From Escherichia coli (GTDB lineage: Bacteria; Pseudomonadota; Gammaproteobacteria; Enterobacterales; Enterobacteriaceae), in NCBI RefSeq assembly GCF_003790525.1, contig NZ_CP033635.1: a DNA stretch of 64,000 bases; one strand, 5' to 3'. Position numbers and translations under genes: made by a program. Under the pieces are notes generated by a model. That model did not search any database, was not told the origin of the DNA, and saw only the letters and a list, made by a program, of their open reading frames with translations. Of the stretch, positions 10,802 to 51,964 are shown piece by piece (position 1 is the first letter of the stretch; each line of letters starts with the position of its first letter).

Positions 10802-12379
10802 ATGACGGAAAACATTCATAAGCATAGCATCCTCATTCTGGACTTCGGTTCCCAGTATACTCAACTGGTTGCGCGCCGCGTGCGTGAGCTGGGCGTTTAC
10901 TGCGAACTGTGGGCGTGGGATGTGACAGAAGCACAAATTCGTGACTTCAATCCAAGCGGCATTATTCTTTCCGGCGGCCCGGAAAGCACCACCGAAGAAA
11001 ACAGCCCGCGTGCGCCGCAGTATGTCTTTGAAGCAGGCGTACCGGTATTCGGCGTTTGCTATGGCATGCAGACCATGGCGATGCAGTTGGGTGGTCACGT
11101 TGAAGCCTCTAACGAACGTGAATTTGGCTACGCGCAGGTTGAAGTCGTAAACGACAGCGCACTAGTTCGCGGTATCGAAGATGCGCTGACCGCAGACGGT
11201 AAACCTCTGCTCGATGTCTGGATGAGCCACGGCGATAAAGTTACCGCTATCCCGTCCGACTTCGTCACCGTAGCCAGCACCGAAAGCTGCCCGTTTGCCA
11301 TTATGGCTAACGAAGAAAAACGCTTCTATGGCGTACAGTTCCACCCGGAAGTGACTCACACCCGCCAGGGTATGCGCATGCTGGAGCGTTTTGTGCGTGA
11401 TATCTGCCAGTGTGAAGCCCTGTGGACGCCAGCGAAAATTATCGACGATGCTGTAGCCCGTATCCGCGAGCAGGTAGGCGACGATAAAGTCATCCTCGGC
11501 CTCTCTGGTGGCGTGGATTCCTCCGTGACCGCAATGCTGCTGCACCGCGCTATCGGTAAAAATCTGACTTGCGTATTCGTCGATAACGGCCTGCTGCGTC
11601 TCAACGAAGCAGAGCAGGTTCTGGATATGTTTGGCGATCACTTTGGTCTGAACATTGTTCACGTTCCGGCAGAAGATCGCTTCCTGTCAGCGTTGGCCGG
11701 CGAAAACGATCCGGAAGCAAAACGTAAAATCATCGGGCGCGTTTTCGTTGAAGTATTCGATGAAGAAGCACTGAAACTGGAAGACGTGAAGTGGCTGGCG
11801 CAGGGCACTATCTACCCTGACGTTATTGAATCTGCCGCATCTGCAACCGGTAAAGCACACGTCATCAAATCTCACCACAACGTGGGCGGCCTGCCGAAAG
11901 AGATGAAGATGGGCCTGGTTGAACCGCTGAAAGAGCTGTTCAAAGACGAAGTGCGTAAGATTGGTCTGGAGCTGGGCCTGCCGTACGACATGCTGTACCG
12001 TCACCCGTTCCCGGGACCAGGCCTTGGCGTTCGTGTTCTGGGTGAAGTGAAGAAAGAGTATTGTGACCTGCTGCGCCGTGCTGACGCCATCTTCATTGAA
12101 GAACTGCGTAAAGCGGACCTGTACGACAAAGTCAGCCAGGCGTTCACCGTCTTCCTGCCGGTACGTTCCGTTGGCGTAATGGGCGATGGTCGTAAGTATG
12201 ACTGGGTTGTCTCTCTGCGTGCTGTCGAAACCATCGACTTTATGACCGCACACTGGGCGCATCTGCCGTACGATTTCCTCGGTCGCGTTTCCAACCGCAT
12301 TATCAATGAAGTGAACGGTATTTCCCGCGTGGTGTATGACATCAGCGGCAAGCCGCCAGCTACCATTGAGTGGGAATGA
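10802..12379 (+). CDS. guaA: GMP synthase (glutamine-hydrolysing)
   Basis: 525-aa translation [40 protein letters not shown]... ends IEWE; immediately downstream of guaB. Confidence 0.95.
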
Positions 12380-12381
12380 TT
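12365..12381. repeat. attL core, 17-bp direct repeat ATTGAGTGGGAATGATT spanning the guaA stop codon
   Basis: Exact copy at 51948-51964; encodes the last guaA codons (I E W E stop). Confidence 0.8.
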
Positions 12382-12571: not shown

Positions 12572-13822
12572 GTGCTTACCGATACAAAATTAAAGAACCT
12601 CAAGCCACAGGACAAACTGTACAAAGTTTCCGATCGTGACGGGCTGTATGTAGCTGTGCTTACGTCAGGTACGGTCTCGTTTCGCTATGACTACCGTATC
12701 AACGGTCGCCGCGAAACACTGGTAATCGGGCAGTATGGGCGTGACGGTATCAGCCTGGCAGAAGCGCGAGAAGAACTGATTGCTGCAAAGAAGCTGCTTA
12801 AAGCAGGCCAGTCGCCGGCTGCGGCTAAACGTGACGGTATCAAAAAGATTCGTGGTGCCGAGACGTTTGCGGTACATACCGACAGTTATATGAAACACGT
12901 CATCCTGGCTGAAAGTACCCGCGCAATGAAGCAGGCAGTGATCGACCGTGACATACTTCCTGTTCTTGGCAACAAAATGATGACTGAAATTACCACATCG
13001 ATGGTTCGTGATTTGTGTGACCGGATTGTCGAACGCGGTGGTCGGGCAACAGCAGTACAGGCCAGGGAGATCATTAGCAGCGTATACCGTCACGCCAATG
13101 ACCGTGGTCATGGTTTGTTTAATCCTGCGGCTGACATTAAACCTTCGTCTATCGCCATATTTAAACCACGAGAGCGAACACTGACACCAGAAGAAATTGG
13201 TCTGTTCTTCCGCACGCTGGATGCCATTGGTGCTATGGGCACTATGAAAATGGCTTTAAAGCTGGTGCTTATCACTATGGTTCGTAAAGGCGAATTCACC
13301 AATGCAACGTGGGACGAAATAGATTTTAAAAAATGGACATGGACAATTCCTTCAGACCGCATGAAGGGAAGCCGGGCGCACGTTATTTACCTGCCAAAAC
13401 AGGCACAGGATATATTGGTTGGGTTGCAGATGTGCGCTGGTGGAAGTGAATATCTGGTTCCTGGTCGTTACAATTTCCGGAAGCCATTATCTAATGCCGC
13501 ACTGAACTCTCTGATCGACAGAACGGTGAAAATAATAAATGAAGATGGTGAGCATATTCAGGGCTTCACCGTACACGATATGCGCCGTACAGCCAGTACG
13601 TTGTTGCATGAGGCTGGTTATCCTTCAGACTGGATTGAAAAGGCTCTGGCACATGAGCAGAAAGGTGTGCGCGCCGTATATAACAAAGCGGAATACGCCA
13701 GACAGCGCGCCTACATGTTGCAGCAGTGGGCCGATATGATTGATTCCTGGATTAACGGGGAGCATACGGATCTAATTCCGTTCTCCCCGTCGAAGTTTGA
13801 GAAGTGGATGGCGGGGGAATAA
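12572..13822 (+). CDS. int: tyrosine-type phage integrase (P4-like family)
   Basis: GTG start; N-terminus MLTDTKLKNLKPQDKLYKVSDRDGLYVAV and C-terminal catalytic region VHDMRRTASTLLHEAGY...AHEQKGVRAVY typical of tyrosine recombinases; adjacent to attL. Confidence 0.9.
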   Translation: MLTDTKLKNLKPQDKLYKVSDRDGLYVAVLTSGTVSFRYDYRINGRRETLVIGQYGRDGISLAEAREELIAAKKLLKAGQSPAAAKRDGIKKIRGAETFAVHTDSYMKHVILAESTRAMKQAVIDRDILPVLGNKMMTEITTSMVRDLCDRIVERGGRATAVQAREIISSVYRHANDRGHGLFNPAADIKPSSIAIFKPRERTLTPEEIGLFFRTLDAIGAMGTMKMALKLVLITMVRKGEFTNATWDEIDFKKWTWTIPSDRMKGSRAHVIYLPKQAQDILVGLQMCAGGSEYLVPGRYNFRKPLSNAALNSLIDRTVKIINEDGEHIQGFTVHDMRRTASTLLHEAGYPSDWIEKALAHEQKGVRAVYNKAEYARQRAYMLQQWADMIDSWINGEHTDLIPFSPSKFEKWMAGE

Positions 13823-13825
13823 CGT

Positions 13826-14020
13826 TTAATAGTTCTGCTGATTTTCTTCCATCTCTGCTTCTGCTGCCAGTGATTCAATTTTGTTTTCGAATATTGCTGA
13901 CAGTGTTGCAAATTCAGCATCAGTGACAGCGGGAATTGGAACAAACCTGATCCCGCTGTGTGCAAGCATGTTTGCAGTTTCAAGGCATTTTCTTAAATCT
14001 GCTGGTGATGCCCTGTTCAT
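13826..14020 (-). CDS. small hypothetical protein (64 aa), translationally coupled to the methyltransferase (ATGA overlap)
   Basis: ATG at 14020 overlaps the MTase TGA stop; translation MNRASPADLRKCLETANMLAHSGIRF... Confidence 0.35.
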   Translation of the reverse strand: MNRASPADLRKCLETANMLAHSGIRFVPIPAVTDAEFATLSAIFENKIESLAAEAEMEENQQNY

Positions 14021-14679
14021 GCAGCACGCTCCCGCCCCTGGTTGTCTGTTGGTGACAGCGGAGAATTGCTGAATGCATTTGTTAATCCGCCAATATCCAA
14101 CGCGTATCCAGGGTGTAGTTGCACTGCCGAGTTTTCGCACTGATTACCCCAAACATCGAAGCCATGAGACGACTGGCGGGCGAACAGTTCAATGCGAGAA
14201 ACATCGCCTAACAATTGCACAAGTTTTTCACGAACGACATCTGGTTTTCTTGAGTGCTCAAGCCGCGGTGCGGTAAATGACTGAACGATCCCTGCATTAA
14301 TGCGCGGAGGTAGTTTTCCCTTTACCGCAAACAGGCAATCTTCACTATTGGCGCGGGTCATGTGTCCCATACCCATAACCAGTTTATCTGGTTGTCGACT
14401 ACCACATTTTATCCACGTGAAGCCCTTCATGGTCATAAGACGAAATCCCCAGGCTTCAACAACTTTTAGTGCTTCGAGTGGTTGTGTTGGCACCCACCAC
14501 ATGGCCAACAGACAGTTTTCAGCGGCCAAATCCCACACAGGAAGGCGGCAGATATCCAGCACACTCATAACTGGATATTTAAAACCGGCACCGCGATTAC
14601 CATCTGCGGCTTTGTCCCGGTATACCCAGGGTGGATCTGCATAGATTAGTGTGTATTTCTTAGTCATAAACCACCCCAC
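14017..14679 (-). CDS. DNA N6-adenine methyltransferase, MT-A70 family (orphan, no cognate nuclease seen)
   Basis: DPPW catalytic motif in LIYADPPWVYRD near N-terminus; 220 aa. Confidence 0.8.
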   Translation of the reverse strand: MGWFMTKKYTLIYADPPWVYRDKAADGNRGAGFKYPVMSVLDICRLPVWDLAAENCLLAMWWVPTQPLEALKVVEAWGFRLMTMKGFTWIKCGSRQPDKLVMGMGHMTRANSEDCLFAVKGKLPPRINAGIVQSFTAPRLEHSRKPDVVREKLVQLLGDVSRIELFARQSSHGFDVWGNQCENSAVQLHPGYALDIGGLTNAFSNSPLSPTDNQGRERAA

Positions 14680-14959
14680 AACATCCTATGCCGCCATAGT
14701 CGCCACGGCGAAGGCCGTTACCTTTTGTGATACATTGGTCCCTGCGAACCGCGATCCTTGCACGCTCAACATCACCAGAAGCAACATCCATACACTGAAG
14801 CCAAAGGTGAGCGGCAATGCGGAACTGCCCTTTTTTCTCTCTTTCAATCGCGCGTTTTTCGATCTCTATCGCCGCAGGAGTAACGGCGACAATCTTTGAC
14901 GGACTGCGCATTGAAACCTTGTTCATGTGATATTTTTCAAGTCGGCTTAACTTTCTCAC
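14660..14959 (-). CDS. hypothetical protein overlapping MTase start (true start uncertain)
   Basis: ORF in operon context between alpA-like gene and MTase; no recognisable motif. Confidence 0.3.
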   Translation of the reverse strand: MRKLSRLEKYHMNKVSMRSPSKIVAVTPAAIEIEKRAIEREKKGQFRIAAHLWLQCMDVASGDVERARIAVRRDQCITKGNGLRRGDYGGIGCCGVVYD

Positions 14960-15068
14960 TTAATCCAACCCTCTCTGAAAATTAATGCCAGCAGATAAAG
15001 CCATGCTGAAACAGAGGCCAGGAATAAGTACCATCCTGACCATTTGCTCCAGTGCCTTAGCAGCACAC

Positions 15069-15317
15069 TCATGCAGCGTTGCTCACAGGACGATATACAC
15101 GTTGCTGAACAGGAGGCTTTTTACCCTGGAACTCTGCCGGGCTTGCTGCCTGACGTTCATCAAGCCAACGCTCAACTTCATCACGGTTCCATGCGCAGCG
15201 TTTATCGGTGATATACCAGCGTTTAGGAAATTCCCCTGCGCGCTCCATACGGTCGATAGTGCTCCATGACAGTGGCACCACCGCCAGGAGTTCCTTCTTA
15301 CCTAATGCACCTTTCAT
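15069..15317 (-). CDS. AlpA/excisionase-like small DNA-binding protein
   Basis: 82 aa; LLAVVPLSWSTIDRMERAGEFPKRWYITDKRCAWNRDEVERWL resembles AlpA/Xis-type HTH proteins. Confidence 0.65.
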   Translation of the reverse strand: MKGALGKKELLAVVPLSWSTIDRMERAGEFPKRWYITDKRCAWNRDEVERWLDERQAASPAEFQGKKPPVQQRVYRPVSNAA

Positions 15318-15366
15318 AAATACCTCTCTTGGTTGCAGTGCGGCGCGCGTGGCGCCGCGGTGGTGG

Positions 15367-16248
15367 TTACATAGATGTTTCGTTTAATTCTTCCCGACGA
15401 ACGCTGTAAACGTCGGTGGCTTTTGCCAGCAGTTCGTCATCATCTGAAAGTTTTTGTGCAATGTATTTGTAAGCCTTATCCAGTTCGGAGACAGTGCTGT
15501 AATTCATCGCTGCGCTGGTAAAGGCCATCAGCATTTCTTCTGGCTCACGGCTATCCGCTTTACGCGTTTGCTCATCAGGCTTTTTCACTGATTTAGCGTT
15601 GATCAGACTGTTCATTCCCGCAGCCGTAGTCATTTGCGGAGTAATGTCTCGCTCAACGCGCGGTGCCGTTTCCTGTAATTCGTCAGGGGTGTAAACACCG
15701 AGAAGTACATCAGGAGCGTGCAGGCGAGCCCATCGTTTCGTGCAAAGATATGCAAGTTGCTGGCGCGGATCCTGTTCCCACAATGGAGAGTTACGCACTC
15801 CTGCTTGCGCCATACTGATGGTAAGCTCACGTGGTTCTGCTTCTCCTTTAAGAACTGCTGACACAGTTACCGTCAGATTCGGTGATTTATCTGTTTTGCC
15901 GTTAACATTCGACCAGTCACCGCTCCAGCGATAATTCAGGCGTGTCGCCAGCAGGCTGGAAGAGGATACGACCGCGTTTACCAACTGTGCTTCGTAGCCT
16001 AACGTTCCGTTTACCACATGCGTTTTCTGCGCCACGGCGAAAGGGTTCATTCCCCACTGTGCCGCCTGCATGGTCACCGCCAGGCAATCGGCAGGTTTGC
16101 CTTCAAGATGTTTCGGTACAGTCGCTTTGCTTTGTGACATCAACTCCGCGAAACGCACCAGTTGATTCATACCCTCGGGGCTGAAGATTGCAGCAGCAGT
16201 GCCTACAGTTGCGCCTGGTTGTGATGTGATTGCGATATCATTGCTCAT
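15367..16248 (-). CDS. RecT-family single-strand annealing recombinase
   Basis: 293 aa; position immediately downstream of and coupled (ATGA overlap) to the exonuclease gene; RecT-like sequence. Confidence 0.75.
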   Translation of the reverse strand: MSNDIAITSQPGATVGTAAAIFSPEGMNQLVRFAELMSQSKATVPKHLEGKPADCLAVTMQAAQWGMNPFAVAQKTHVVNGTLGYEAQLVNAVVSSSSLLATRLNYRWSGDWSNVNGKTDKSPNLTVTVSAVLKGEAEPRELTISMAQAGVRNSPLWEQDPRQQLAYLCTKRWARLHAPDVLLGVYTPDELQETAPRVERDITPQMTTAAGMNSLINAKSVKKPDEQTRKADSREPEEMLMAFTSAAMNYSTVSELDKAYKYIAQKLSDDDELLAKATDVYSVRREELNETSM

Positions 16249-17066
16249 ACGTACATATCCTGTTTACGTGCCCAGTCAGGGCGTTTAATAATTTCCACTC
16301 CGCCCCATTCATCGTTGATGCGGCATTCGTGATAGGTATTCAGATCCCGGCGGAACAGAGCGTGCCCGGCATCGACATCCTGCGCATCCAGCTCGAACAC
16401 GCGTACCGGATACCGACCACAATCAATGCTTTCGCTCACGGCAAGAAAGAAAAAACCATGCGGCTGACCAGTAACCATCATTGCGCCTTCGCGGTACATT
16501 GCGTCCTGCACGTGGTAGCGGAATTCCTCGATGTGGCGTGCAAAACGGTCCATATCTGCAACCTTTTTCACGTCGACGATCACGTTGTGCTCGTTCAGCC
16601 ATTTGTCTGGACGAATTCGGCACAACTCCCCCGTCTCTTCATCGTTCCAGTACATTGATGCTTCGCAGTAACCAGGTGCTTCCAGCATCCAGCGTGCCGC
16701 CGGGTGAGCCATTGCGCTATCACGCATCAGCTCCAGTTTCCGCCACTGCTCGGCATCAAGTACCGTAATCCCCATATCCGCCACATCACGAAGAAATTCC
16801 TCTTCGTCAGCTTTACCTTGTTTCGTCCGACGATCGAATTTCGGTGAAACAATGAAGCGTTTGTCGAACTCTCCAGGCTCCAGAAGCAGACAGTGCAATG
16901 CGGTTCCCATATCCAGTGCAGACTTTTTCTCTTCGTCTTCTGGTGCTGCCTGAACCCATTTAAGAAGCGCCGGATTCTTGGCAACCATGTCCAGTTGCGA
17001 CTTACTCACGCCGTCACCGGCGTGGTAGTCTTCGTTGCTGATGTCGAAATAAATTCCCGGTTTCAT
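16245..17066 (-). CDS. phage recombination exonuclease (RecE C-terminal / PD-(D/E)XK-like)
   Basis: 273 aa; MKPGIYFDISNEDYHAGDGVSKSQLD... N-terminus typical of this exonuclease family; partner of RecT. Confidence 0.7.
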   Translation of the reverse strand: MKPGIYFDISNEDYHAGDGVSKSQLDMVAKNPALLKWVQAAPEDEEKKSALDMGTALHCLLLEPGEFDKRFIVSPKFDRRTKQGKADEEEFLRDVADMGITVLDAEQWRKLELMRDSAMAHPAARWMLEAPGYCEASMYWNDEETGELCRIRPDKWLNEHNVIVDVKKVADMDRFARHIEEFRYHVQDAMYREGAMMVTGQPHGFFFLAVSESIDCGRYPVRVFELDAQDVDAGHALFRRDLNTYHECRINDEWGGVEIIKRPDWARKQDMYV

Positions 17067-17362
17067 GCCGCGTCCCTCTGCCCATCAAGCTGATCAGCCA
17101 GATCCCAGCGGGCGATAATTGCCATTGCCTCGCGCCGGTAGGCATCCATTAGTTCTTCGAACTCAGGGCTGTCTTTAGCGGCCTCCAGTACTTCCTGGCG
17201 AACGCCTTTAACTGTTACAACGTCGAAAGTTGATGCCAGTTGATGAAGCCGGATACTCTCAATCAGTTCAACTTGTCGGTCATATAGCTGTTCTGACAGA
17301 CGGTAGTCCTTGTCGAATGCCAGCATGATTTTTTGAAGATTTTTCTGCTGATTAACGTTCAT
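17063..17362 (-). CDS. hypothetical early protein (start MNVNQQ)
   Basis: ATGA overlaps with flanking genes; SD GGGAGGG upstream. Confidence 0.4.
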   Translation of the reverse strand: MNVNQQKNLQKIMLAFDKDYRLSEQLYDRQVELIESIRLHQLASTFDVVTVKGVRQEVLEAAKDSPEFEELMDAYRREAMAIIARWDLADQLDGQRDAA

Positions 17363-17364
17363 TA

Positions 17365-17517
17365 TCAGCCCTCCCATATCTCGTTATCGTTGGCCACATC
17401 GCGAGCTTCTTTGCTGACGAAAGCCCACTTAATGCCTTCCTGTAAGGTGCGGAACTTCCAGCTCATGAATCCGCATGCAGTAACGCAGTACCAACCGTTG
17501 ATGATTTTCCACTGCAT
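17365..17517 (-). CDS. small Cys-containing early protein (50 aa), first gene of leftward early operon
   Basis: ATG 17517 with SD GAGGTAA; MQWKIINGWYCVTACGFMSWKF...; not in ORF track (<60 aa). Confidence 0.3.
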   Translation of the reverse strand: MQWKIINGWYCVTACGFMSWKFRTLQEGIKWAFVSKEARDVANDNEIWEG

Positions 17518-17536
17518 AACTTGTTACCTCGGTCTG

Positions 17537-17551
17537 TTACCGTTGAGGTAA
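17537..17551. promoter_or_regulatory. TTACC-N5-GGTAA operator-like site (perfect), leftward early promoter region
   Basis: TTACC GTTGA GGTAA. Confidence 0.5.
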
Positions 17552-17598
17552 TAATTATGCGTATATGGTTTGATGTCAATAGATATGAGTTAAAAAAA

Positions 17599-17613
17599 TT
17601 ACCCGTTAGGTAA
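17599..17613. promoter_or_regulatory. TTACC-N5-GGTAA operator-like site (perfect), leftward early promoter region
   Basis: TTACC CGTTA GGTAA. Confidence 0.5.
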
Positions 17614-17622
17614 TCGAATAGG

Positions 17623-17650
17623 CAATAAAAAAGCCGCCATAAGGCGGCTT
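17623..17650 (-). terminator. rho-independent terminator after repressor gene
   Basis: aagccgcc ataa ggcggctt hairpin with T-run on minus strand. Confidence 0.55.
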
Positions 17651-17670
17651 ACTTACTGAAAAATATGGTT

Positions 17671-18255
17671 TTATTGTTTGTTTTTTTCGTTCTGGTTGAT
17701 GACAAATTCAATGTAACTTTCGATCTTTGCTTTCTCGGTTTCGGGTAACAATGCGTAGCGCGAGCGATCATAGTTGATGGTCGCAGGGTCATGCGGATGA
17801 ATCAGTAGTTCATATCCGTGACGCCCGAATGCAGATGCAACATTCTCCAGGGTGGAAATGGAAACGCTGACCTCATTGTTTAACAGGCGGCTTATTGTCA
17901 CCTGGGCGACGCCGGATGCGCGGTGAAGTTTTCCCTGAGTTGAAAGGTCGCGGCTTTCACTCATCCAGCGTTCCAGGTTGTGAGCCGCCAGCTGACCTAT
18001 ATCACTCGGGCCGACAGGCTGAAAACCCTCCTGAGAAAGCGAGCGATCAATATCAAGCCAGTTACGGGGTTTATTGGCGGCAGCTTCAATTTTTCGCGCA
18101 ACCTGGTCGCCGATAACCTTCTTGCCAAGAGCCCAGCGGTTTACCAGATTTGCCTGAGTTCCAAGTTTTTCTGCCATCCGCGTCTGAACACCATTGAATT
18201 CACGGTCGATCAAGTCGTTGAGATTTTGCCTGCGGACGTCCTGGATACTTTTCAT
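17671..18255 (-). CDS. putative immunity repressor with two HTH regions, no S24 peptidase domain
   Basis: 194 aa; HTH-like segments TRMAEKLGTQANLVNRWALG and ASGVAQVTISRLLNNEVSVSISTLENVASAF; divergent from cro-like gene across an operator cluster. Confidence 0.6.
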   Translation of the reverse strand: MKSIQDVRRQNLNDLIDREFNGVQTRMAEKLGTQANLVNRWALGKKVIGDQVARKIEAAANKPRNWLDIDRSLSQEGFQPVGPSDIGQLAAHNLERWMSESRDLSTQGKLHRASGVAQVTISRLLNNEVSVSISTLENVASAFGRHGYELLIHPHDPATINYDRSRYALLPETEKAKIESYIEFVINQNEKNKQ

Positions 18256-18310
18256 TTTCTGGAAAATCGCCTCATATATGAATCAGTAGATGATTCAATT
18301 TAAAGCAATA

Positions 18311-18325
18311 TTACCCAACAGGTAA
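18311..18325. promoter_or_regulatory. operator-like site 1 of 3 in repressor/cro intergenic region (perfect TTACC CAACA GGTAA)
   Basis: Palindrome in divergent promoter region. Confidence 0.55.
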
Positions 18326-18327
18326 AT

Positions 18328-18342
18328 GCACCTCATGGGTAA
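18328..18342. promoter_or_regulatory. operator-like site 2 of 3 (GCACC TCATG GGTAA, one degenerate half)
   Basis: Adjacent to site 1. Confidence 0.35.
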
Positions 18343-18358
18343 CTATCCTTGATTTTTG

Positions 18359-18373
18359 TTACCTTATGGGTGA
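18359..18373. promoter_or_regulatory. operator-like site 3 of 3 (TTACC TTATG GGTGA), overlaps putative rightward promoter
   Basis: Possible -35 TTGATT at 18349-18354 and -10-like GAATAT at 18372-18377. Confidence 0.4.
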
Positions 18374-18409
18374 ATATTTATTATCTGAAATAAATATCAG
18401 GCAATAGCT

Positions 18410-18640
18410 ATGAGCGATAACGGACATTTCGATTTCAAAAAGCACTGGCTTGCACTTACTCCGGATGAGCGTGAAGCCTTCGCACAGGAAGCCGGAACGA
18501 CGAGTCACTATATCCAGACTCACTTAACAGGTAAGCGCAAAATGCCAGGTAAAGTATTGATGAATGGGCTTTTTAAAGCCTGTAAAACAAGACAATGGCT
18601 GCGCTCAAAAGCAGAACTGGCATACTTCTTCTACTCATGA
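18410..18640 (+). CDS. Cro-like small regulatory protein
   Basis: 76 aa; divergent from repressor; MSDNGHFDFKKHWLALTPDEREAFAQEAGTTSHYIQTHLTGKRK. Confidence 0.5.
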   Translation: MSDNGHFDFKKHWLALTPDEREAFAQEAGTTSHYIQTHLTGKRKMPGKVLMNGLFKACKTRQWLRSKAELAYFFYS

Positions 18641-19001: not shown

Positions 19002-19812
19002 GGTTGAAGTTATCACTCCTGATAAACCTGAAATTTTTCAGATAGCAGAAATTCTGGGTATTGATCCAGATGCTGTTCTTGGAAAGCTGGTTCGTATATG
19101 GGCATGGGCTGACCAGCAAACAATAGACGGTAACGCTGGCAGCGTTACAAAAGGAGTACTTGATAGACTCGCTTTTATTACAGGATTTGCTGACGCCCTC
19201 ATTAGCGTCGGATGGCTTGCTTATCATGACGGCAAACTAATTCTTCCAAACTTTGAGCGACACAATGGAGAATCATCGAAAAAACGTGCACTTACGAATA
19301 GAAGAGTGGCAGAGCATCGAAAACGAGTAACGCAAAAAGTAACGCCAACAGCGTTACAAAAGGAGTTACCAGAGGAAGAGGAAGAGGAAGATATATATAA
19401 AACCCCACACATAGCGCACGTGCGCGAGGGGGCTACGACCAGTGAAGCGAACGGTATGCCGTTGCAGGTGGCTGAACCTGAATTTCTGGATGGCCTGAGT
19501 GAACCCATCGGGAAATTTCCGATGACCGATGACTGGCATCCGTCGCCGGATTTTCGACGGCGTGCTGCGCTGTGGGGAACGGCCCTGCCGGAACCGGAAT
19601 TTACACCTGCTGAACTTGCTGCATTCCGGGATTACTGGATGGCTGAGGGCAAAGTGTTCACGCAGGTTCAGTGGGAACAAAAATTCGCCAGGCACGTAAA
19701 TCATATCAGGGGAAAATCAAAAAACGCCGGGAAAAGCGATGAGCTTGACTGGAATAACACTGACTGGATAGAAGGGGTGTGGGATGAAATCAACTCCAGA
19801 ACTTCTCAATGA
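18982..19812 (+). CDS. phage replisome organiser (lambda O-like role)
   Basis: MASSWIKVEVITPDKPEIFQIAEILGIDPDAVLGKLVRIWAWADQQ N-terminal domain; precedes P-like gene. Confidence 0.6.
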   Translation: MASSWIKVEVITPDKPEIFQIAEILGIDPDAVLGKLVRIWAWADQQTIDGNAGSVTKGVLDRLAFITGFADALISVGWLAYHDGKLILPNFERHNGESSKKRALTNRRVAEHRKRVTQKVTPTALQKELPEEEEEEDIYKTPHIAHVREGATTSEANGMPLQVAEPEFLDGLSEPIGKFPMTDDWHPSPDFRRRAALWGTALPEPEFTPAELAAFRDYWMAEGKVFTQVQWEQKFARHVNHIRGKSKNAGKSDELDWNNTDWIEGVWDEINSRTSQ

Positions 19813-20560
19813 GTACGATCGCTTACGTGAGCATGGTGTTGCTGTGCATGAAGAGCGGCGTGACAGCAATGGCAAAAAGGAGCAGGTCGCTAGAATTTTC
19901 AATGAACTATTTGTCCAGTTACAGGCTGCATTTCCCGCAAGCGTTTCGACCATAAGGGAGCAGAACAAACTTAATGAATTCCGTAAGCAATGGATGCTTG
20001 CGTTTCTGGAGAATGGGATCACAACAATGGAACAGGTTAACGCTGGTATGCGCCACGCCCGCGCCAGTGAGTCTCCGTTCTGGCCGTCGCCAGGGCAATT
20101 TATCAAGTGGTGTAAAGACAGCAAGATGGTTCTTGGCGTCACCATTGACGATGTGATGGCGGAGTTTCACCGGTACAGCAAGGAAAAAAGTTTATATCCT
20201 GGTGGTCCCGAAAGATTCCCGTGGCGGCATCCGGTTATGTACTGGGTCGTATGTGATACCCGCCGTGCAATGTATCAGCGCCAGCTTAGCGAGATTGAAG
20301 TTGAGAAACACGCGCGCAGGCTGCTCGATGATTGGGCGAAAAAGGTGGCTTCCGGGCAGCAGATACCCGATCCGGTGATCAGCATACAGGCAAAGCCAGA
20401 ACCCATGAGTACGCCTCCGGACACAGGGAGAGACGTTTACCACCCGCCAGGGCGAAGTTTCGGGTGCATGCCTAACGCCGCCACCCTTGGGGGAATAACA
20501 CCGGCTCAGTGGCTGATGGAGGAATACAGGCGGGGAAAGGCGGCAGGATTTATCAAGTAA
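19784..20560 (+). CDS. replication protein P-like (DnaB helicase loader)
   Basis: Segment FPASVSTIREQNKLNEFRKQWMLAFLENGITTMEQVNAGMRHAR closely resembles lambda P as recalled. Confidence 0.7.
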   Translation: MKSTPELLNEYDRLREHGVAVHEERRDSNGKKEQVARIFNELFVQLQAAFPASVSTIREQNKLNEFRKQWMLAFLENGITTMEQVNAGMRHARASESPFWPSPGQFIKWCKDSKMVLGVTIDDVMAEFHRYSKEKSLYPGGPERFPWRHPVMYWVVCDTRRAMYQRQLSEIEVEKHARRLLDDWAKKVASGQQIPDPVISIQAKPEPMSTPPDTGRDVYHPPGRSFGCMPNAATLGGITPAQWLMEEYRRGKAAGFIK

Positions 20561-20597
20561 TACCAGCGCGATAGCGCATTTTTTTACGCCTTGATAA

Positions 20598-20612
20598 TTA
20601 CCTGTAGGGTAA
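20598..20612. promoter_or_regulatory. TTACC-N5-GGTAA operator-like site (perfect)
   Basis: TTACC TGTAG GGTAA. Confidence 0.5.
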
Positions 20613-20659
20613 CAAAATATTCTAAACTCTATTGATTTCGTGTCTTATGTGGTTTTTAA

Positions 20660-20674
20660 TTACCTCAGAGGTAA
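20660..20674. promoter_or_regulatory. TTACC-N5-GGTAA operator-like site (perfect), ends 4 nt before ATG 20678
   Basis: TTACC TCAGA GGTAA; GAGGT half doubles as SD. Confidence 0.5.
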
Positions 20675-20677
20675 ATC

Positions 20678-21022
20678 ATGAGAAAACAGATACAGGCTCT
20701 TGGTCGACTCAAAACAGGCCAGATGAACAAAACAGAATCTGCGTATTGCCAGCACCTTGAGCTGCGTAAACGTGCAGGGGAAATCGCCTGGTATCGATTC
20801 GAGGGTATCAAGCTGCGGTTAGCTGACAACACGTTCTATACGCCCGATTTTGCTGTGATGCTCGCCACCGGCGAGATGGAACTGCACGAAGTGAAAGGTT
20901 TCTGGACCGACGACGCTAGGGTGAAAACCAAAGTCGCCGCAGATCAGTATCCGTTCCGAATCATCGGGGTAACGGTTAAACCAAAGAAAGCAGGTGGTGG
21001 CTGGAACATCGAAGAGTTCTGA
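20678..21022 (+). CDS. small phage protein (DUF1064-like, uncertain)
   Basis: 114 aa; MRKQIQALGRLKTGQMNKTESAYCQHLELRKRAGEIAWYRFEGIKLRL. Confidence 0.4.
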   Translation: MRKQIQALGRLKTGQMNKTESAYCQHLELRKRAGEIAWYRFEGIKLRLADNTFYTPDFAVMLATGEMELHEVKGFWTDDARVKTKVAADQYPFRIIGVTVKPKKAGGGWNIEEF

Positions 21023-21083
21023 ATCGACGATCTTTTTAGTTATCAATGTAATCAATAAGTTATGTGGATAAGCGAGGGTAAAG

Positions 21084-21626
21084 ATGGAAAGTAATATCAA
21101 AGGGTTAGTTGCCGCCGGGCATGAGATGGCTTCGGAACTGAAAGCTGAATGTGGTGCCGTTGATATGCGTAGTGTGGCAAAGCTGCTCAGCGATTTGGCA
21201 ACGCAACTGGAAGTGCAACTGGTGCGTGCTAATGCGCTGGCCGAAGACCAACAGAGAGCGATTGAGTCAATTAAGCAGGCTGATTCGGCTGTTAAGTTGG
21301 CACACAAGAAGTTTTCGGAGCTGGCAGCGGAGAATGCGGCACTGAAGGCTGCGCACCCTCAACCATTCGGACCTGAGATGATGAAGGCTCTTGATGCGTA
21401 TGAGAAGTATCAGGATGAAGTGCCGGAGACTGGGATGCTCAATGCATTTTTCATCTTGCGCGACAGTATCCGTGTTGACACCCCAGCCACCGACGCTTTC
21501 CTAGCTGAAGTTCGAGCGCAGGGTGTAGATATGGCAGCTTGCGCCCTTGATAACGTAAACCAGTTCAATTACGCAAACATGCTCGATGATTTAGCGCAGA
21601 AGATTCGCAAAGGAGTGCAGTCATGA
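21084..21626 (+). CDS. hypothetical coiled-coil protein
   Basis: 180 aa ORF with SD; stop overlaps next ATG. Confidence 0.4.
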   Translation: MESNIKGLVAAGHEMASELKAECGAVDMRSVAKLLSDLATQLEVQLVRANALAEDQQRAIESIKQADSAVKLAHKKFSELAAENAALKAAHPQPFGPEMMKALDAYEKYQDEVPETGMLNAFFILRDSIRVDTPATDAFLAEVRAQGVDMAACALDNVNQFNYANMLDDLAQKIRKGVQS

Positions 21627-21808
21627 AAAACCGTAAAGCCAAAATCATCGTTCTTCGCGCTCTGAAAAACTGCTACCCGCGCCAATGGCTGAATGTAAGC
21701 AATCGACGCATGGTTCTCTTCACGCTAGGTGGTGTTAGCCGTGAAGGGCATCAATTCAAAAACAGCGCAGCACAGAATCGCTGGAAGAATCATGCGAGGT
21801 TCCAATGA
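21623..21808 (+). CDS. small basic protein, MKNRKAK family copy A
   Basis: N-terminus MKNRKAKI and C-terminus SAAQNRWKNH shared with copy C; synonymous differences in the shared C-terminal codons. Confidence 0.4.
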   Translation: MKNRKAKIIVLRALKNCYPRQWLNVSNRRMVLFTLGGVSREGHQFKNSAAQNRWKNHARFQ

Positions 21809-21914
21809 GCAATATCGACAAGCGGCCTCTACGTGACAAGCTGTCACCGTATGACACAGAAGAGATGCTTGAGGCTATGCGTATTTTTCTGTAAGAACAG
21901 GGAGGTGAGCAAAA

Positions 21915-22232
21915 ATGACGATCACAAAACAACGGGTAGAAGAAATCATATCCCGCATTGAAATGTATGGGCATGGCGCAGGGTATACCGCCGAAGAGGT
22001 TTATGACCTGGCTGTACTGGCGCTGAATTTATCAAATATCGCAAAACTCAAGCGATACGAGCTTGATATGGATGGTTGTGACTCGTTCGGTCAGGATTGT
22101 GGCGCTGACATGACTGAAGATTCTGATGGCGATTATGTCCTGTTTGATGACGTGGTTAAGTTGTTTGAGTTTGATACAACCACTCAGAAGATAGAAAGCC
22201 CAGCAAAGGAGGCAACCAGTGAGCAAGATTGA
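21915..22232 (+). CDS. hypothetical acidic protein
   Basis: 105 aa ORF, SD GGAGG upstream. Confidence 0.35.
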   Translation: MTITKQRVEEIISRIEMYGHGAGYTAEEVYDLAVLALNLSNIAKLKRYELDMDGCDSFGQDCGADMTEDSDGDYVLFDDVVKLFEFDTTTQKIESPAKEATSEQD

Positions 22233-22773
22233 CTATCAGGCACTGCGTGAAAAGGCAGAGAAAGCAACGTGTGGTGTATGGTCGATCGAATATGGAGAGA
22301 GCCGATTTGATGGTGATGATGCGTTAATTCACCGTGAAGTTGCTGGATATATTCCCATTTGCAGAATTGAAGGAGCGCATCCTGAAAGCGGTTTCGATGA
22401 AGATTTCCAAACTGAACAGCAGGCCAATGCTGAATTCATCGCCGCAGCCAATCCGGCTACTGTGCTGGCGCTTCTGGATGAACGGGAAAGAAACCAGCAA
22501 TACATCAAACGCCGCGACCAGGAGAACGAGGATATTGCGCTAACGGTAGGGAAGCTGCGCGTTGAGCTGGAAGCCGCAGAGAAGCGCATAGCAGAACTGG
22601 AAGCGCGGGAAATACTGCTCCCTGAACGTAGCAGCATGCTTCATCGAACAGATTTTCACGATGATTACCAAACGGTAATGGCATACAAAGTTTCTGAAGT
22701 CATCGATGCAATCCGCGCTACTGGCATTTGCATCAAAGGAGACGCAGGAGAGCAAAACGATGAAAAACCGTAA
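22219..22773 (+). CDS. Ead/Ea22-like early protein (uncertain)
   Basis: Contains NAEFIAAANPATVLALLDERE segment typical of this family as recalled; coiled-coil C-terminus. Confidence 0.45.
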   Translation: MSKIDYQALREKAEKATCGVWSIEYGESRFDGDDALIHREVAGYIPICRIEGAHPESGFDEDFQTEQQANAEFIAAANPATVLALLDERERNQQYIKRRDQENEDIALTVGKLRVELEAAEKRIAELEAREILLPERSSMLHRTDFHDDYQTVMAYKVSEVIDAIRATGICIKGDAGEQNDEKP

Positions 22774-22936
22774 AGCAAAATTACTTCTTTTATCGCGTTC
22801 GACGGGGTACGAGAAGCTACCAATCAGCAATCACAAACGGGCGGTGATCGGCATGTTTGGTAGGGTGGTATTCGCATTTAACTATAAACCCACCGCGTCG
22901 CGGAACAGACGAGAGAAGGGGTACGCAGTGCGATGA
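22760..22936 (+). CDS. small basic protein, MKNRKAK family copy B
   Basis: Starts with conserved ATGAAAAACCGTAAAGC; overlaps upstream gene end. Confidence 0.3.
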   Translation: MKNRKAKLLLLSRSTGYEKLPISNHKRAVIGMFGRVVFAFNYKPTASRNRREKGYAVR

Positions 22937-23124
22937 AAAACCGTAAGGCAAAGATGCTGATAGCAAAGCCCGGGCAGCGTATCCGTATCTCAAATCGGCT
23001 TGTTATTTACTATAGATATCTGGGTTTTAGGGGGTGTTCCTCTATTCGTTTTTACGGTGTCTGGCGAAACAGAAGCGCAGCACAAAACCGCTGGAAAAAC
23101 CACTTTCGCACTAAAGGAGAGTGA
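22933..23124 (+). CDS. small basic protein, MKNRKAK family copy C
   Basis: MKNRKAKM...SAAQNRWKNHFRTKGE. Confidence 0.4.
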   Translation: MKNRKAKMLIAKPGQRIRISNRLVIYYRYLGFRGCSSIRFYGVWRNRSAAQNRWKNHFRTKGE

Positions 23125-23125
23125 T

Positions 23126-23875
23126 ATGACCACTTTCACCGACAAAGAACTGATTAAAGAAATCAAAGAGCGTATCAGCAGCCTGGACGTTCGAGACAAT
23201 ATTGAACGCCGGGCTTATGAAATTGCACTGGCATCGCTGGAAGCAGATCCAGTTGCTTATATTTTCAAACATCCGGCCGGGAAATTATTCTGGGCTTTGA
23301 CGGATGAAAGCAATAAAGAGCAATCGGACGTTATTCCTGTTTATGCCGCCCCTCCAGTGCCAGTAGTACCTGAAGAAAAACCAATGCCTAACCCTCTTAA
23401 AATGTACGCGGTCGATGCTGTTGCCGCTATTGCAGAGGTGAGAGGCTGGAACGCCTGCCGCGCCGCCATGCTTCAGGCCGAACCTGTAAGTAATAGTGAT
23501 GAGTTACCGCTGGACTATCTGCAAGGACACAAAGACGGCCTGGAGTGGGCTGCACAATTGGCAGAAGCCAATCATCCGCAAACAGGTGACTGGTTGTACG
23601 ACGACCCAATCGATCTTGCCAGGGCGATTCGCAAAGGTCCTGATATGCCTACTGTTCAGGCTGGCAACTATCCGGTAACTCCGGATGGTTGGATAAGCTG
23701 TAGTGAGCGAATGCCCGCTCAAGATGATTGGATTTTTATTTATTCAAAGCACGGCGAGTATATGGCAGGACAGGTACAAGGGGAATACGTGGAGTTGAGC
23801 GACGGCACTTTATCGTGGTTAGGGAACGCCTTGTACTGGATGCCTCTACCGGAACCGCCGCAGGAGGTTAATTGA
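23126..23875 (+). CDS. DUF551-like phage protein
   Basis: Start MTTFTDKEL with SD AAGGAGAG; C-terminus GEYVELSDGTLSWLGNALYWMPLPEPP. Confidence 0.45.
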   Translation: MTTFTDKELIKEIKERISSLDVRDNIERRAYEIALASLEADPVAYIFKHPAGKLFWALTDESNKEQSDVIPVYAAPPVPVVPEEKPMPNPLKMYAVDAVAAIAEVRGWNACRAAMLQAEPVSNSDELPLDYLQGHKDGLEWAAQLAEANHPQTGDWLYDDPIDLARAIRKGPDMPTVQAGNYPVTPDGWISCSERMPAQDDWIFIYSKHGEYMAGQVQGEYVELSDGTLSWLGNALYWMPLPEPPQEVN

Positions 23876-24159
23876 TGGTCTCCTTCGCGAAATATACGAT
23901 TATTGACTGGATAGCATTCATTCAGGTTTTGCTCATCTGGTTTTATATGGCTTACAGGAGTGGACAGTGGATTGTCAGTGTAGCCTGTAGCAATGGATGG
24001 CGTTGGTGGAACCGAAAGAATAAAAAAGCGCTGGCCTTGGCTTCGTTTTACGAAGCATTCAATCTTAACAGTCTTCAGCCTGGTTCTGTCGTTGTAGTCA
24101 CCACTCAAAGCGGCATGACGATACAAATTCACAAGCCAAAGGAGGAAGGTCGTGGCTAA
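23872..24159 (+). CDS. hypothetical small membrane protein
   Basis: 95 aa, hydrophobic N-terminal half. Confidence 0.3.
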   Translation: MMVSFAKYTIIDWIAFIQVLLIWFYMAYRSGQWIVSVACSNGWRWWNRKNKKALALASFYEAFNLNSLQPGSVVVVTTQSGMTIQIHKPKEEGRG

Positions 24160-24433
24160 CCTGCAACTTGCCGTTAAAGGTGAATACTTCGATGCCATGA
24201 TTCGCGGGGAGAAAACGGAAGAGTATCGCCTGTGTAATGACTACTGGAATAAGCGAATTATGTTCCGCGAGTATGACCGCCTGATTATCACAAAGGGATA
24301 TCCGAAGCGCGACGATTCCAGCCGCAGAATTGACGTCCCGTATGACGGATATGAAATCAAGACAATCACACATCCGCACTTCGGCGATAAACCGGTAAAG
24401 GTGTTCGCTATAAAGGTGAATATTGATGGCTAA
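24152..24433 (+). CDS. ASCH-domain protein
   Basis: 93 aa; GEYFDAMIRGEKTEEYR matches ASCH GxKxxExR signature. Confidence 0.5.
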   Translation: MANLQLAVKGEYFDAMIRGEKTEEYRLCNDYWNKRIMFREYDRLIITKGYPKRDDSSRRIDVPYDGYEIKTITHPHFGDKPVKVFAIKVNIDG

Positions 24434-24764
24434 ATCAGCAGCAGAGCGCAAAGCCGCGCAGCGCGCTCGGCAGTCCGCCGCCGGTGAGCGCAAAATTGAA
24501 CTGGTGCTGGATAAGCAGGAGCAGGAAATGCTGGCGCGGAACTGCGCCGCCCGGCGCCCTGGTCACGATCCCTATGAAATGGCCGAGTACATCGCGCTGC
24601 TGATCCGCCAGGATGATGCACGTGTGCGCGGGCGTATAAAATCGATCAGTAGAAAACGTTGCGGTAAGTGCGGCGAGAGAGTTCCAGTTAATTCATGTCC
24701 GTGTAATGGTGACTCGCAATGCTGGGTGACTAAAGGCTGGCATGAAACGAAATTAATAGTGTGA
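24423..24764 (+). CDS. small zinc-ribbon protein immediately upstream of the late operon (candidate late regulator)
   Basis: C-terminal CGKCGERVPVNSCPCNGDSQC cluster; stop codon lies inside GTGACATGTCAC palindrome. Confidence 0.35.
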   Translation: MMAKSAAERKAAQRARQSAAGERKIELVLDKQEQEMLARNCAARRPGHDPYEMAEYIALLIRQDDARVRGRIKSISRKRCGKCGERVPVNSCPCNGDSQCWVTKGWHETKLIV

Positions 24765-24772
24765 CATGTCAC
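24761..24772. promoter_or_regulatory. 12-bp perfect palindrome GTGACATGTCAC (copy 1)
   Basis: Identical copy at 44886-44897. Confidence 0.4.
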
Positions 24773-24813
24773 GAGTAGATTATGCATGATGAATTTGATG
24801 GGTTTTGAATACT

Positions 24814-24839: not shown

Positions 24840-24850
24840 GCATGGTACTA

Positions 24851-51947: not shown

Positions 51948-51964
51948 ATTGAGTGGGAATGATT
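51948..51964. repeat. attR core, 17-bp direct repeat ATTGAGTGGGAATGATT
   Basis: Exact copy of 12365-12381. Confidence 0.8.

Follow-up and report, generated by a model that had tools for sequence, protein, structure and literature searches.

An orphan MT-A70 methyltransferase gene and its small neighbours in a phiV10-like prophage of Escherichia coli

Described MT-A70 enzymes and the present locus

Among prokaryotic MT-A70 enzymes, p32 of Serratia phage BZS1 and M.EfaBMDam of Tn1549 are DNA methyltransferases acting on GATC, as determined for BZS1 p32 by an MboI/DpnI assay in a dam- host (PMC7556043), and M.EcoGV has been assigned GATC (PMC6602927). M.EcoGV has been called highly similar to M.EcoPA8orf6770P, the methyltransferase of Stx2a phage PA8, by the authors who studied the latter and who reported that it methylates 16S rRNA together with the protein PNB-2 (Gong, Chakraborty and Koudelka 2023; PMC10810198). 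Alone in vitro, M.EcoPA8orf6770P gave near-background methylation of DNA, dam- DNA included; it co-purifies 1:1 with PNB-2, the product of the gene just upstream, and for this complex the preference for 16S rRNA over DNA exceeds 13-fold. The same authors reported that the enzyme raises spontaneous prophage induction, and that AlphaFold failed on its complex with PNB-2 (PMC10810198). For the small lambda protein Orf63 (DUF1382) an NMR structure is available (8DSB) and a pro-lytic effect has been reported (PMC10869804).

Here we describe an MT-A70 gene of an E. coli prophage located in the window, that is, the whole 64,000-nucleotide stretch of contig NZ_CP033635.1 that was analysed. The encoded protein is 83% identical to M.EcoPA8orf6770P over residues 1-187, with the DPPW motif in both, and 41% identical to BZS1 p32. 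An earlier note on this locus left out M.EcoPA8orf6770P, which is the closest studied homologue (PMC10810198).

The 1701-nt module around the gene (13700-15400) is present in 534 of 5,426 complete E. coli genomes, about 10%, at a minimum of 95% identity and 80% coverage, and in 17 phage records, that of phiV10 included, which is 98.0% identical in DNA over the 1701 nt. The same succession of integrase, DUF1382, methyltransferase, PerC-like, 38-aa, AlpA and RecT-RecE genes is found in phiV10 (p32-p34; NC_007804; Uetakevirus) and in epsilon15-like phages, and the size of the prophage and its integration site next to guaA are common to its relatives. Differences from phiV10 are minor: its record gives RecE-RecT as a single fusion, whereas the prophage has two separate overlapping genes. 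All three genes of the module are already named in RefSeq, and the finding is real but ordinary: with the stretch annotated there, a long-published phage that matches it at 98% identity and a presence in roughly a tenth of complete E. coli genomes, the observation adds little by itself.

Organization of the operon and identity of its last genes

The prophage extends from about 12365 to about 51964 (about 39.6 kb), since copies of a 17-bp repeat lie at both ends (Table 1); it is phiV10-like and inserted at guaA. Its replication-to-terminase region is mosaic relative to sequenced genomes. An IS insertion, suspected within 19.8-28.1 kb from many plasmid hits, was rejected, as family scans of that interval show mosaic phage genes only.

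Table 1. Features of the prophage left arm and attachment sites, with positions in the window
Feature	Position	Strand	Basis or remark
attL core, 17-bp direct repeat ATTGAGTGGGAATGATT	12365..12381	.	overlaps guaA 3' end (guaA ends 12379); exact copy at 51948
P4-type tyrosine integrase	12572..13822	plus	PHROG 1, E 4.5e-87; NCBIfam integrase domain; RefSeq
64-aa lambda Orf63 homologue (DUF1382), last operon gene	13826..14020	minus	Pfam, PDB, lambda identity
MT-A70 (class beta) N6-adenine methyltransferase (predicted), orphan, 216 aa	14017..14667	minus	Pfam, PHROG, PADLOC, homologue identities
99-aa PerC/ANR-superfamily small protein	14660..14959	minus	GTG start; PHROG 868, Pfam PerC
Membrane-protein ORF, 38 aa (phiV10 p35 equivalent)	14956..15072	minus	4-nt overlaps on both sides
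AlpA-type excisionase/regulator, 82 aa	15069..15317	minus	PHROG 66, E 2e-16; RefSeq and phiV10 annotations
RecT-family annealing protein	15367..16248	minus	PHROG 561, E 1.4e-144; RefSeq
RecE C-terminal-type PD-(D/E)XK exonuclease	16245..17066	minus	NCBIfam exodeoxyribonuclease VIII, positions 606-873 of 877, E 1.1e-92; PHROG 412
Two small early genes, operon head (17063-17362/17377 and 17365-17517)	17063..17517	minus	PHROG 856, E 6.1e-55; RefSeq and phiV10 annotations
Sigma-70 promoter-like site, candidate early-left promoter	17551..17579	minus	TTGACA, 17-nt spacer, AATTAT; consensus match only
Terminator-like hairpin downstream of repressor-like gene	17631..17650	minus	terminator at same place in phiV10 record
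HTH repressor-like protein, 194 aa	17671..18255	minus	RefSeq 'helix-turn-helix domain-containing protein'; phiV10 p40 'putative repressor'
attR core, second copy of the 17-bp repeat	51948..51964	.	followed by host yfgI, yfgH

The methyltransferase ORF spans 14017-14679 on the minus strand, and its ATG at 14667, which is also the RefSeq start, gives a 216-aa protein with the N-terminus MTKKYTLIYADPPW, in which YADPPW occupies residues 9-14 and DPPW residues 11-14. Pfam MT-A70 (PF05063) matches residues 5-176 over its entire length (model positions 1-172 of 172; E 1.4e-21), and the protein also matches PHROG 359 (E 6.7e-120) and the PADLOC model MTase_II (E 1e-77). It is colinear with solved MT-A70 catalytic domains, its DPPW aligning with that of Tetrahymena MTA1 (E 4.8e-13; METTL3, catalytic domain, E 1.9e-5); in an alignment of eight sequences the D, the first P and the W are invariant, the second P being A in one. 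[quoted passage not shown] The earlier note had called a methyltransferase from the DPPW motif, which the ORF, the motif position and the full-model match bear out; all its other claims about the sequence itself were likewise confirmed.

The methyltransferase, PerC-like and Orf63-like genes close an early-left operon of roughly ten genes, RecE and RecT among them, which is convergent with the integrase gene and separated from it by a 3-nt spacer. Eight junctions lead from the first operon ORF to the 64-aa ORF: five are 4-nt overlaps (ATGA/GTGA) and one an 8-nt overlap, the RecT-AlpA junction is the only one with a 49-nt gap, and the junction between the 50-aa ORF and the next gene is either a 13-nt overlap (longest start) or a 2-nt gap (RefSeq start). 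The candidate promoter matches the consensus at 10 of 12 positions and was the sole minus-strand site found within 13500-18600, and from AlpA to the operon end neither an internal promoter nor a terminator was found at the scan threshold. The span 13826-15317, in which a translationally coupled operon of the methyltransferase and small genes had been proposed, also holds the AlpA-type gene and the 38-aa ORF, whose translation MSVLLRHWSKWSGWYLFLASVSAWLYLLALIFREGWIK resembles Tyrion gp33 and phiV10 p35. The proposal stands as far as the 8-nt and ATGA overlaps and the tight packing are concerned, the operon being probably translationally coupled; it fails as a three-gene unit, overlaps running throughout the operon, and those made with the methyltransferase gene are generic operon packing with nothing special to it.

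The ATG of the 64-aa ORF overlaps the methyltransferase stop as ATGA (TGA; 14020-14017) and is preceded, 8 nt upstream, by GGGAG. Pfam DUF1382 matches residues 1-60 of the encoded protein over the full 60-position model (E 2.1e-30), the PDB entry 8DSB matches at E 8.5e-13, and identity to lambda Orf63 is 50% over 62 aa; a dimeric fold and a pro-lytic phenotype may be expected by likeness to lambda Orf63. The protein resembles Orf63 in its small size and full-length Pfam match. However, the lambda gene lies between orf60a and orf61 in the exo-xis region, with no methyltransferase nearby, whereas the prophage gene is the last of its operon, follows the methyltransferase gene and abuts int; no homologues of orf60a or orf61 were found within the prophage operon.

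The 99-aa ORF ends 8 nt inside the methyltransferase gene, and its GTG forms a GTGA overlap with the stop codon of the 38-aa ORF. Start calls differ, 83 aa in RefSeq and 88 aa in the phiV10 record, and residues 3-16 of the 99-aa version are conserved among Tyrion, E15 and Klebsiella homologues. The protein matches PHROG 868 over its whole length (1-99 of 99; E 2.4e-61) and Pfam PerC (PF06069) partially (residues 35-80 against model positions 5-50 of 90; E 1.2e-6), while NCBIfam ANR (NF033650) gives 23.5 bits (E 3.5e-5), under the curated cutoff of 32 bits. The ANR proteins of the BZS1 type pass that cutoff (50.9 bits), and the 99-aa protein is related to them at the superfamily level only. With PerC/Pch (PF06069) and the ANR regulators it has in common a helical core motif, E..G.[FY]..AA.LW...R...C; it is unlike these families in that the matches are weak and partial and that it has additional conserved N- and C-terminal segments. 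In RefSeq the protein carries the name of a PerC family regulator, and the phiV10 record also names a PerC-like gene. On these profile matches we assign it to the PerC/ANR superfamily; transcriptional activation as expected of the PerC family (for example of LEE/ler) would be putative for it. The two small proteins, which the earlier note had considered uncharacterised, are thus an Orf63/DUF1382 protein of a family with a solved structure and a named PerC/ANR protein. The methyltransferase, 99-aa and 64-aa ORFs are judged to be real genes and not chance ORFs, because they match family profiles (Pfam, PHROG) and because the module recurs in genomes and phages.

Variable neighbours and the methyltransferase slot

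A scan of viral contigs with the single protein returned only loci with 96-100% identical methyltransferases, while a diverse alignment headed by a Hafnia sequence reached other contexts. In 80 loci of the former kind the downstream gene is Orf63 in 49, a Ser/Thr phosphatase in 26 and neither in five. In relatives, one to three genes (orf60a/DUF1317, a small winged-helix gene, NinX, DUF4406, DGQHR) stand between PerC and the methyltransferase, and more distant methyltransferase homologues follow NinB, ParB, Dcm or PNB-2, a 4-nt overlap of the same kind being common among them. With Orf63 replaced in 26 of the 80 loci and PerC set apart from the methyltransferase by other genes in relatives, the PerC-like and Orf63-like genes are best read as independent accessory members of a mosaic region and not as dedicated partners. 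Covariation of the enzyme's C-terminal tail with the gene on either side was rejected, since the same tail occurs in many contexts: the '...GRERAA' tail is found with Orf63, phosphatase, winged-helix or K13_d2-like genes downstream and with PerC, gp30 or orf60a upstream.

In related prophages with the RecE-RecT-AlpA-PerC...Int arrangement beside guaA, the position of the gene behaves as a slot, which held a DNA methyltransferase in all 20 sampled. MT-A70 enzymes fill it in 12, Dam (PF05869) in three, a Dcm (PF00145) and Dam fusion in three and N6_N4_Mtase (PF01555) in two, and PHROG assignments agree with these four types. A role in DNA methylation is therefore supported, the slot being filled in relatives by unrelated DNA methyltransferases. 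As a side observation, three phage lineages have PerC/ANR-like genes upstream of their MT-A70 genes.

Substrate, partners and comparison with described systems

Taking these observations together, we consider it probable that the prophage gene encodes an orphan class-beta enzyme in an accessory methyltransferase slot, with Dam-like methylation of DNA at GATC, independent neighbours and generic packing. The enzyme is placed in the Dam-like GATC subgroup of MT-A70 by its relatedness to members of that subgroup, from which GATC methylation is predicted. It would be co-produced with RecE, RecT and AlpA upon derepression of the operon, presumably at infection or induction, and replicating phage DNA would become fully methylated. 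The likely benefits would be protection from restriction, by anti-restriction or hypermethylation, and possibly Dam-dependent regulation. That the enzyme may protect phage DNA, as had been suggested earlier, is plausible given the unrelated DNA methyltransferases in the slot of relatives, with the DNA substrate and the anti-restriction effect themselves still presumed. Several points weigh against the Dam-like reading: the sole biochemical study of a close homologue gives near-background DNA methylation and a preference for rRNA; target specificity is not readable from sequence; a GATC enzyme would duplicate host Dam; and, given the three lineages with PerC/ANR-like genes upstream, the neighbours could be not fully independent. 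For GATC the observed/expected ratios of prophage and host flank are 0.73 and 0.75, and with values so nearly equal composition supports neither side. The lack of a prophage-dependent methylation motif, which the earlier note had named as evidence against its view, would not be decisive, because a GATC-specific enzyme adds no new motif in a dam+ host and the early-operon genes may be silent in the lysogen.

An enzyme of this family could also serve as the modification component of a defence system, restriction-modification or other, with its nuclease elsewhere, and PADLOC does assign it to type II methyltransferase models. However, these were the only PADLOC models matched, no nuclease or other defence component being found among the neighbours or elsewhere in the prophage, and in phiV10 and its relatives the gene is likewise an orphan. 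Family scans of the neighbours, scans of the variable genes specific to the window and the RefSeq annotation of an identical left arm and of the right arm gave no restriction endonuclease, adjacent or elsewhere in the prophage, in agreement with the earlier note, which had seen none adjacent; the neighbours are integrase, DUF1382, PerC, AlpA, RecT and RecE genes. We regard a defence system of this kind as extremely improbable. The PerC/ANR-like protein could instead be a companion of the methyltransferase, either a C-protein-like controller of its expression or a specificity or activating subunit, the 8-nt overlap then serving stoichiometric co-production. PerC and methyltransferase genes overlap directly in 76 of 79 loci of the phiV10 type, and an ANR-like gene is immediately adjacent in 34 of the 35 BZS1-type loci that carry one; the small proteins of the two types are related (hhalign probability 87%, E 3.9e-6) while the methyltransferases are just 41% identical, and in a third group winged-helix and PerC fusion proteins lie upstream of ParB and MT-A70 (hhalign probability 96.9%). 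Nevertheless, the genes that intervene in epsilon15, Klebsiella and Enterobacter relatives (one to three) are unrelated, PerC is retained in prophages whose slot is taken by Dam PF05869, Dcm-Dam or N6_N4 enzymes, a PerC/ANR-like ORF is absent nearby in about half of the diverse MT-A70 loci, and the methyltransferase tail does not covary with the neighbours. To our knowledge, the ANR and PerC/Pch proteins characterised so far are regulators that act without any methyltransferase. A dedicated partnership at this locus seems to us quite unlikely, and we hold as similarly doubtful the general form of the idea, in which PerC/ANR small proteins, free or fused to a winged helix, accompany phage orphan methyltransferases as controllers or as PNB-2-like targeting or activating subunits. 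If true, the PerC-methyltransferase overlap would mark a two-component enzyme whose substrate, DNA or rRNA, is set by the partner.

Alternatively, the enzyme could be an RNA methyltransferase like that of PA8, acting on 16S rRNA, possibly with a small neighbour as targeting subunit, and tuning translation and spontaneous induction. The 83% identity speaks for this, as do the variable segments of the Stx type (about residues 87-100 and 125-135) that the two enzymes have in common, the Orf63 homologue that follows the methyltransferase in PA8 and in P27 too, the 1:1 complex of the PA8 enzyme with its upstream-encoded protein and the rRNA preference of that complex (PMC10810198), and the heteromeric action of eukaryotic MT-A70 enzymes (PMC7544214). 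However, no homologue of PNB-2 or PNB-1 was found in the window or in relatives, a PNB-2 homologue being absent from every phiV10-type locus, and hhalign finds no relation between PNB-2 and the PerC/ANR core (probability 0.1%). The C-terminal tail (last ~27 residues), proposed by the PA8 authors as the contact with PNB-2, diverges after residue 187 and matches Tyrion, not PA8; the slot of sister prophages holds bona fide DNA methyltransferases, C5 fusions included; the PA8 paper never identified which rRNA base is modified (PMC10810198); and GATC in DNA is the target of three other prokaryotic MT-A70 enzymes (PMC7556043, PMC6602927). We therefore think an rRNA methyltransferase unlikely.

Compared with the described systems, the prophage enzyme has in common with BZS1 p32 and M.EfaBMDam the Pfam family, the class-beta architecture and the position of an orphan phage gene by int/xis. 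Enzymes of the BZS1 type carry an insertion of about 25 residues after the TMKxFTW motif, which the prophage enzyme lacks, and in BZS1 an ANR-family gene lies immediately upstream of the methyltransferase gene. METTL3-METTL14 and the ciliate MTA1 complex are obligate heteromers with a paralogous inactive subunit, whereas no paralogue is encoded in the prophage. The PA8 locus is like that of the prophage in that an Orf63/DUF1382 homologue overlaps the 3' end of the methyltransferase gene, which lies near int at the end of the early operon; they differ in phage type (Sepvirinae in PA8, Uetakevirus here) and in the gene upstream, which encodes PNB-2 (143 aa, winged helix) in PA8 and the unrelated PerC-like protein in the prophage. 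The prophage variant thus offers a natural comparison for the question raised in 2023, of widespread prophage MT-A70 enzymes that are Dam-like and act on DNA against partner-dependent rRNA enzymes that tune induction and virulence: it has the catalytic core of the Stx phage enzyme without PNB-2, and its slot is occupied in sister phages by DNA methyltransferases unrelated to it.

The methyltransferase in its prophage and operon

The methyltransferase lies in a prophage of ~39.6 kb flanked by a 17-bp direct repeat, ATTGAGTGGGAATGATT, at 12365 and 51948; guaA ends at 12379. Over the 1701 nt around the gene, identity is 100% with E. coli strain 702/18 and 98.0% with phage phiV10, and the module is present at at least 95% identity in 534 of 5,426 complete E. 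coli genomes. It is already known and annotated: RefSeq names the three genes 'DUF1382 family protein', 'MT-A70 family methyltransferase' and 'PerC family transcriptional regulator', and the phiV10 record annotates them likewise. The 38-aa membrane ORF carries no RefSeq annotation in strain 702/18.

Features of the methyltransferase module and the genes before it
Feature	Position	Strand	Remarks
64-aa Orf63-like ORF	13826-14020	minus	ATG within ATGA; TGA is the methyltransferase stop
MT-A70 methyltransferase ORF	14017-14679	minus	ATG at 14667 gives 216 aa, beginning MTKKYTLIYADPPW
99-aa PerC-like ORF	14660-14959	minus	GTG start; end lies 8 nt inside the methyltransferase gene
38-aa membrane ORF	14956-15072	minus	joins AlpA to the 99-aa ORF, 4-nt overlap on each side
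AlpA-type gene	15069-15317	minus	like the 38-aa ORF, within the stretch that the earlier note gave for the module

The earlier note described a DPPW methyltransferase overlapped by the end of a 99-aa ORF and by the ATGA start of a 64-aa ORF, and this description is accurate; the DPPW motif occupies residues 11-14 of the 216-aa protein. The enzyme covers the whole Pfam MT-A70 model (E 1.4e-21), is also assigned to PHROG 359, matches type II methyltransferase models in PADLOC and has as its closest solved structures the catalytic domains of Tetrahymena MTA1 and human METTL3. The designation as an orphan also holds, as family scans and PADLOC found no restriction-system nuclease among its neighbours, and neither the annotation nor scans of the window-specific variable genes revealed a restriction enzyme elsewhere in the prophage. 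The gene (14017-14667) is a mosaic: the variable segments around residues 87-100 and 125-135 correspond to the Stx-phage and Yersinia type, and the C-terminal tail of 29 residues (...SPLSPTDNQGRERAA) to Enterobacter phage Tyrion.

The three genes form the distal end of a leftward operon that starts at a promoter-like site (17579-17551), directly past a terminator-like hairpin behind a repressor-like gene, and that runs through two small ORFs, a RecE-like exonuclease, RecT, AlpA, the 38-aa ORF, the PerC-like gene, the methyltransferase and the Orf63-like gene. Between the first ORF and the 64-aa ORF there are eight junctions, of which five are 4-nt overlaps and one is an 8-nt overlap; the 50-aa ORF and the next gene overlap by 13 nt if the longest start is taken and lie 2 nt apart if the RefSeq start is, and only RecT and AlpA are separated by 49 nt. 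Gene overlap is a trait of the whole operon and not of the methyltransferase. The operon and int are convergent, with stop codons 3 nt apart (13823-13825) and no terminator-like hairpin found between them; therefore, operon transcripts should run antisense into int.

Elsewhere in the prophage, RecE-like and RecT (15367-17066) are two distinct ORFs that overlap at an ATGA, as in strain 702/18, whereas the phiV10 RefSeq record has them as a single 1761-nt fusion. The replication-to-terminase region (19800-28100) is collinear with none of the complete E. coli genomes, the highest coverage being 82%, and is ~1.2 kb longer than its counterpart in strain 702/18; an IS element was considered there and rejected, the contents being a mosaic of Ea22-like, DUF551-like and unknown phage genes. 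A 296-aa protein of this region (26947-27837, minus strand; PHROG 4780, function unassigned) adjoins the prophage tRNA-Arg(TCT) (27988-28064, minus strand), and its sole PADLOC matches are weak ones to the long defence ATPases DndD, LmuB and JetC (E 3e-5 or worse).

The small flanking genes

The small partners had been taken as uncharacterised, but homology search places them in the DUF1382/Orf63 family and the PerC/ANR superfamily. The 64-aa protein, whose ATG is preceded by GGGAG 8 nt upstream, matches DUF1382 over its full length (E 2.1e-30), the lambda protein Orf63 at 50% identity and the Orf63 NMR structure 8DSB (E 8.5e-13). Orf63 belongs to the early proteins of the exo-xis region; it is dimeric and is reported to act pro-lytically (PMC10869804). 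The 99-aa protein has an end-to-end match to PHROG 868 and a weak one to Pfam PerC (E 1.2e-6), and scores 23.5 bits against the NCBIfam ANR model, under the 32-bit cutoff. At the head of this gene (14911-14959) the annotations differ, RefSeq beginning at M17 (83 aa) and the phiV10 record giving 88 aa; the 99-aa GTG start appears better supported than either, because residues 3-16 (KLSRLEKYH...) are kept in Tyrion, E15 and Klebsiella homologues and the GTG and the stop codon of the 38-aa ORF share a GTGA.

The neighbours were counted in 80 IMG/VR loci with methyltransferases 96-100% identical. Downstream, 49 loci have Orf63, 26 have a lambda-type Ser/Thr phosphatase and 5 have neither, with the same 4-nt overlap in all; PerC abuts the methyltransferase in 76, and a 1.1-kb insertion separates them in 3. 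In Enterobacter phage Tyrion, Klebsiella phage ST512-KPC3phi13.3, Salmonella E15 and many IMG/VR relatives, one to three other genes intervene, including an orf60a/DUF1317 homologue, small winged-helix genes and a DGQHR protein, and the downstream gene is likewise different. In some phiV10-type and Klebsiella relatives, PerC/orf60a and the methyltransferase are separated by an inserted DGQHR-motif (DndB-like) gene of ~370 aa (loci L119, 1405-2504, and L106). Distant homologues are preceded by NinB, ParB, Dcm or PNB-2, often again with a 4-nt overlap. Orf63 follows the methyltransferase in phiV10-type and Stx-type E. coli phages, precedes it in locus L269 and occurs in lambda without any methyltransferase. 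No covariation of the methyltransferase tail with the upstream or downstream neighbour was observed.

The methyltransferase position beside guaA

Six PerC-like representatives were sampled, giving 20 informative places (among loci L253-L273). All 20 share the architecture RecE-RecT-AlpA-PerC...Int beside guaA, and all have a DNA methyltransferase between PerC and Int, which is of the MT-A70 family in 12, Dam (PF05869) in three, a Dcm (PF00145) and Dam fusion in three and N6_N4_Mtase (PF01555) in two; the four families are distinct by PHROG assignment. The slot is a fixed position of non-orthologous replacement in guaA-integrated epsilon15/phiV10-like prophages, and this replacement is the best available evidence for selection on DNA methylation in the lineage. 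Since PerC is kept with such varied families, it is not specific to MT-A70.

Partners, substrate and known relatives

Three divergent lineages have ANR/PerC-superfamily genes upstream of MT-A70: the phiV10 type (window 14660-14959); the Serratia BZS1 type (L172, 11704-11886; L173-L206, L227), with the ANR-like gene directly adjacent in 34 of 35 ANR-carrying loci and small proteins related to the PerC-like one of the window (hhalign probability 87%, E 3.9e-6); and a third (L166-L167, L208-L233), where ~140-aa winged-helix and PerC fusion proteins lie upstream of a ParB-like gene and MT-A70. This recurrence could reflect a shared operon position; a real functional link seems to us quite improbable.

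We infer the specificity, substrate and expression of the window methyltransferase, and consider that it is probably an orphan Dam-like DNA adenine methyltransferase, likely GATC-specific. It would be made alongside the early recombination and excision genes upon induction or infection and would fully methylate phage DNA, for anti-restriction and possibly regulation, with the PerC-like and Orf63-like genes as independent accessory genes. BZS1 p32, the Serratia phage enzyme, is 41% identical to it, and an MboI/DpnI assay with a dam- host showed it to be a GATC-specific DNA methyltransferase; the prokaryotic MT-A70 enzyme M.EfaBMDam is GATC-specific as well (PMC7556043). A serious rival, although an unlikely one, is that it methylates rRNA, as it shares 83% identity over residues 1-187 with M.EcoPA8orf6770P of the Stx2a phage PA8. 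Gong et al. (PMC10810198) reported that the PA8 enzyme raises spontaneous induction and virulence and that by itself its in vitro activity, whether on DNA or on RNA, is close to background. It purifies in a 1:1 ratio with PNB-2, a winged-helix protein of 143 aa whose gene lies immediately upstream, and the two together prefer 16S rRNA. However, this defining partner is missing here, no PNB-2 homologue being found in the window. Gong et al. (PMC10810198) also remark that M.EcoGV, which is very similar to the PA8 enzyme, acts on GATC in vivo upon overproduction, and Forde et al. (PMC6602927) list M.EcoGV homologues as GATC enzymes. The comparison of lysogen and cured-strain methylomes proposed in the earlier note would not decide on a GATC-specific enzyme, because host Dam masks it and the genes of the early operon may not be expressed in a lysogen.

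In the Stx phage P27, whose methyltransferase is identical to the PA8 enzyme, the upstream 67-aa gene gp03 (L004, 4801-5004) has just the last 21 residues in common with PNB-2 (L003, 2851-3282); therefore, the proposed partner is replaced even among Stx phages. The window enzyme differs from the Stx type in its C-terminal tail, and its wider relevance is solely that of a natural case without PNB-2, for comparison when asking if the substrate of prophage MT-A70 enzymes is DNA or rRNA.
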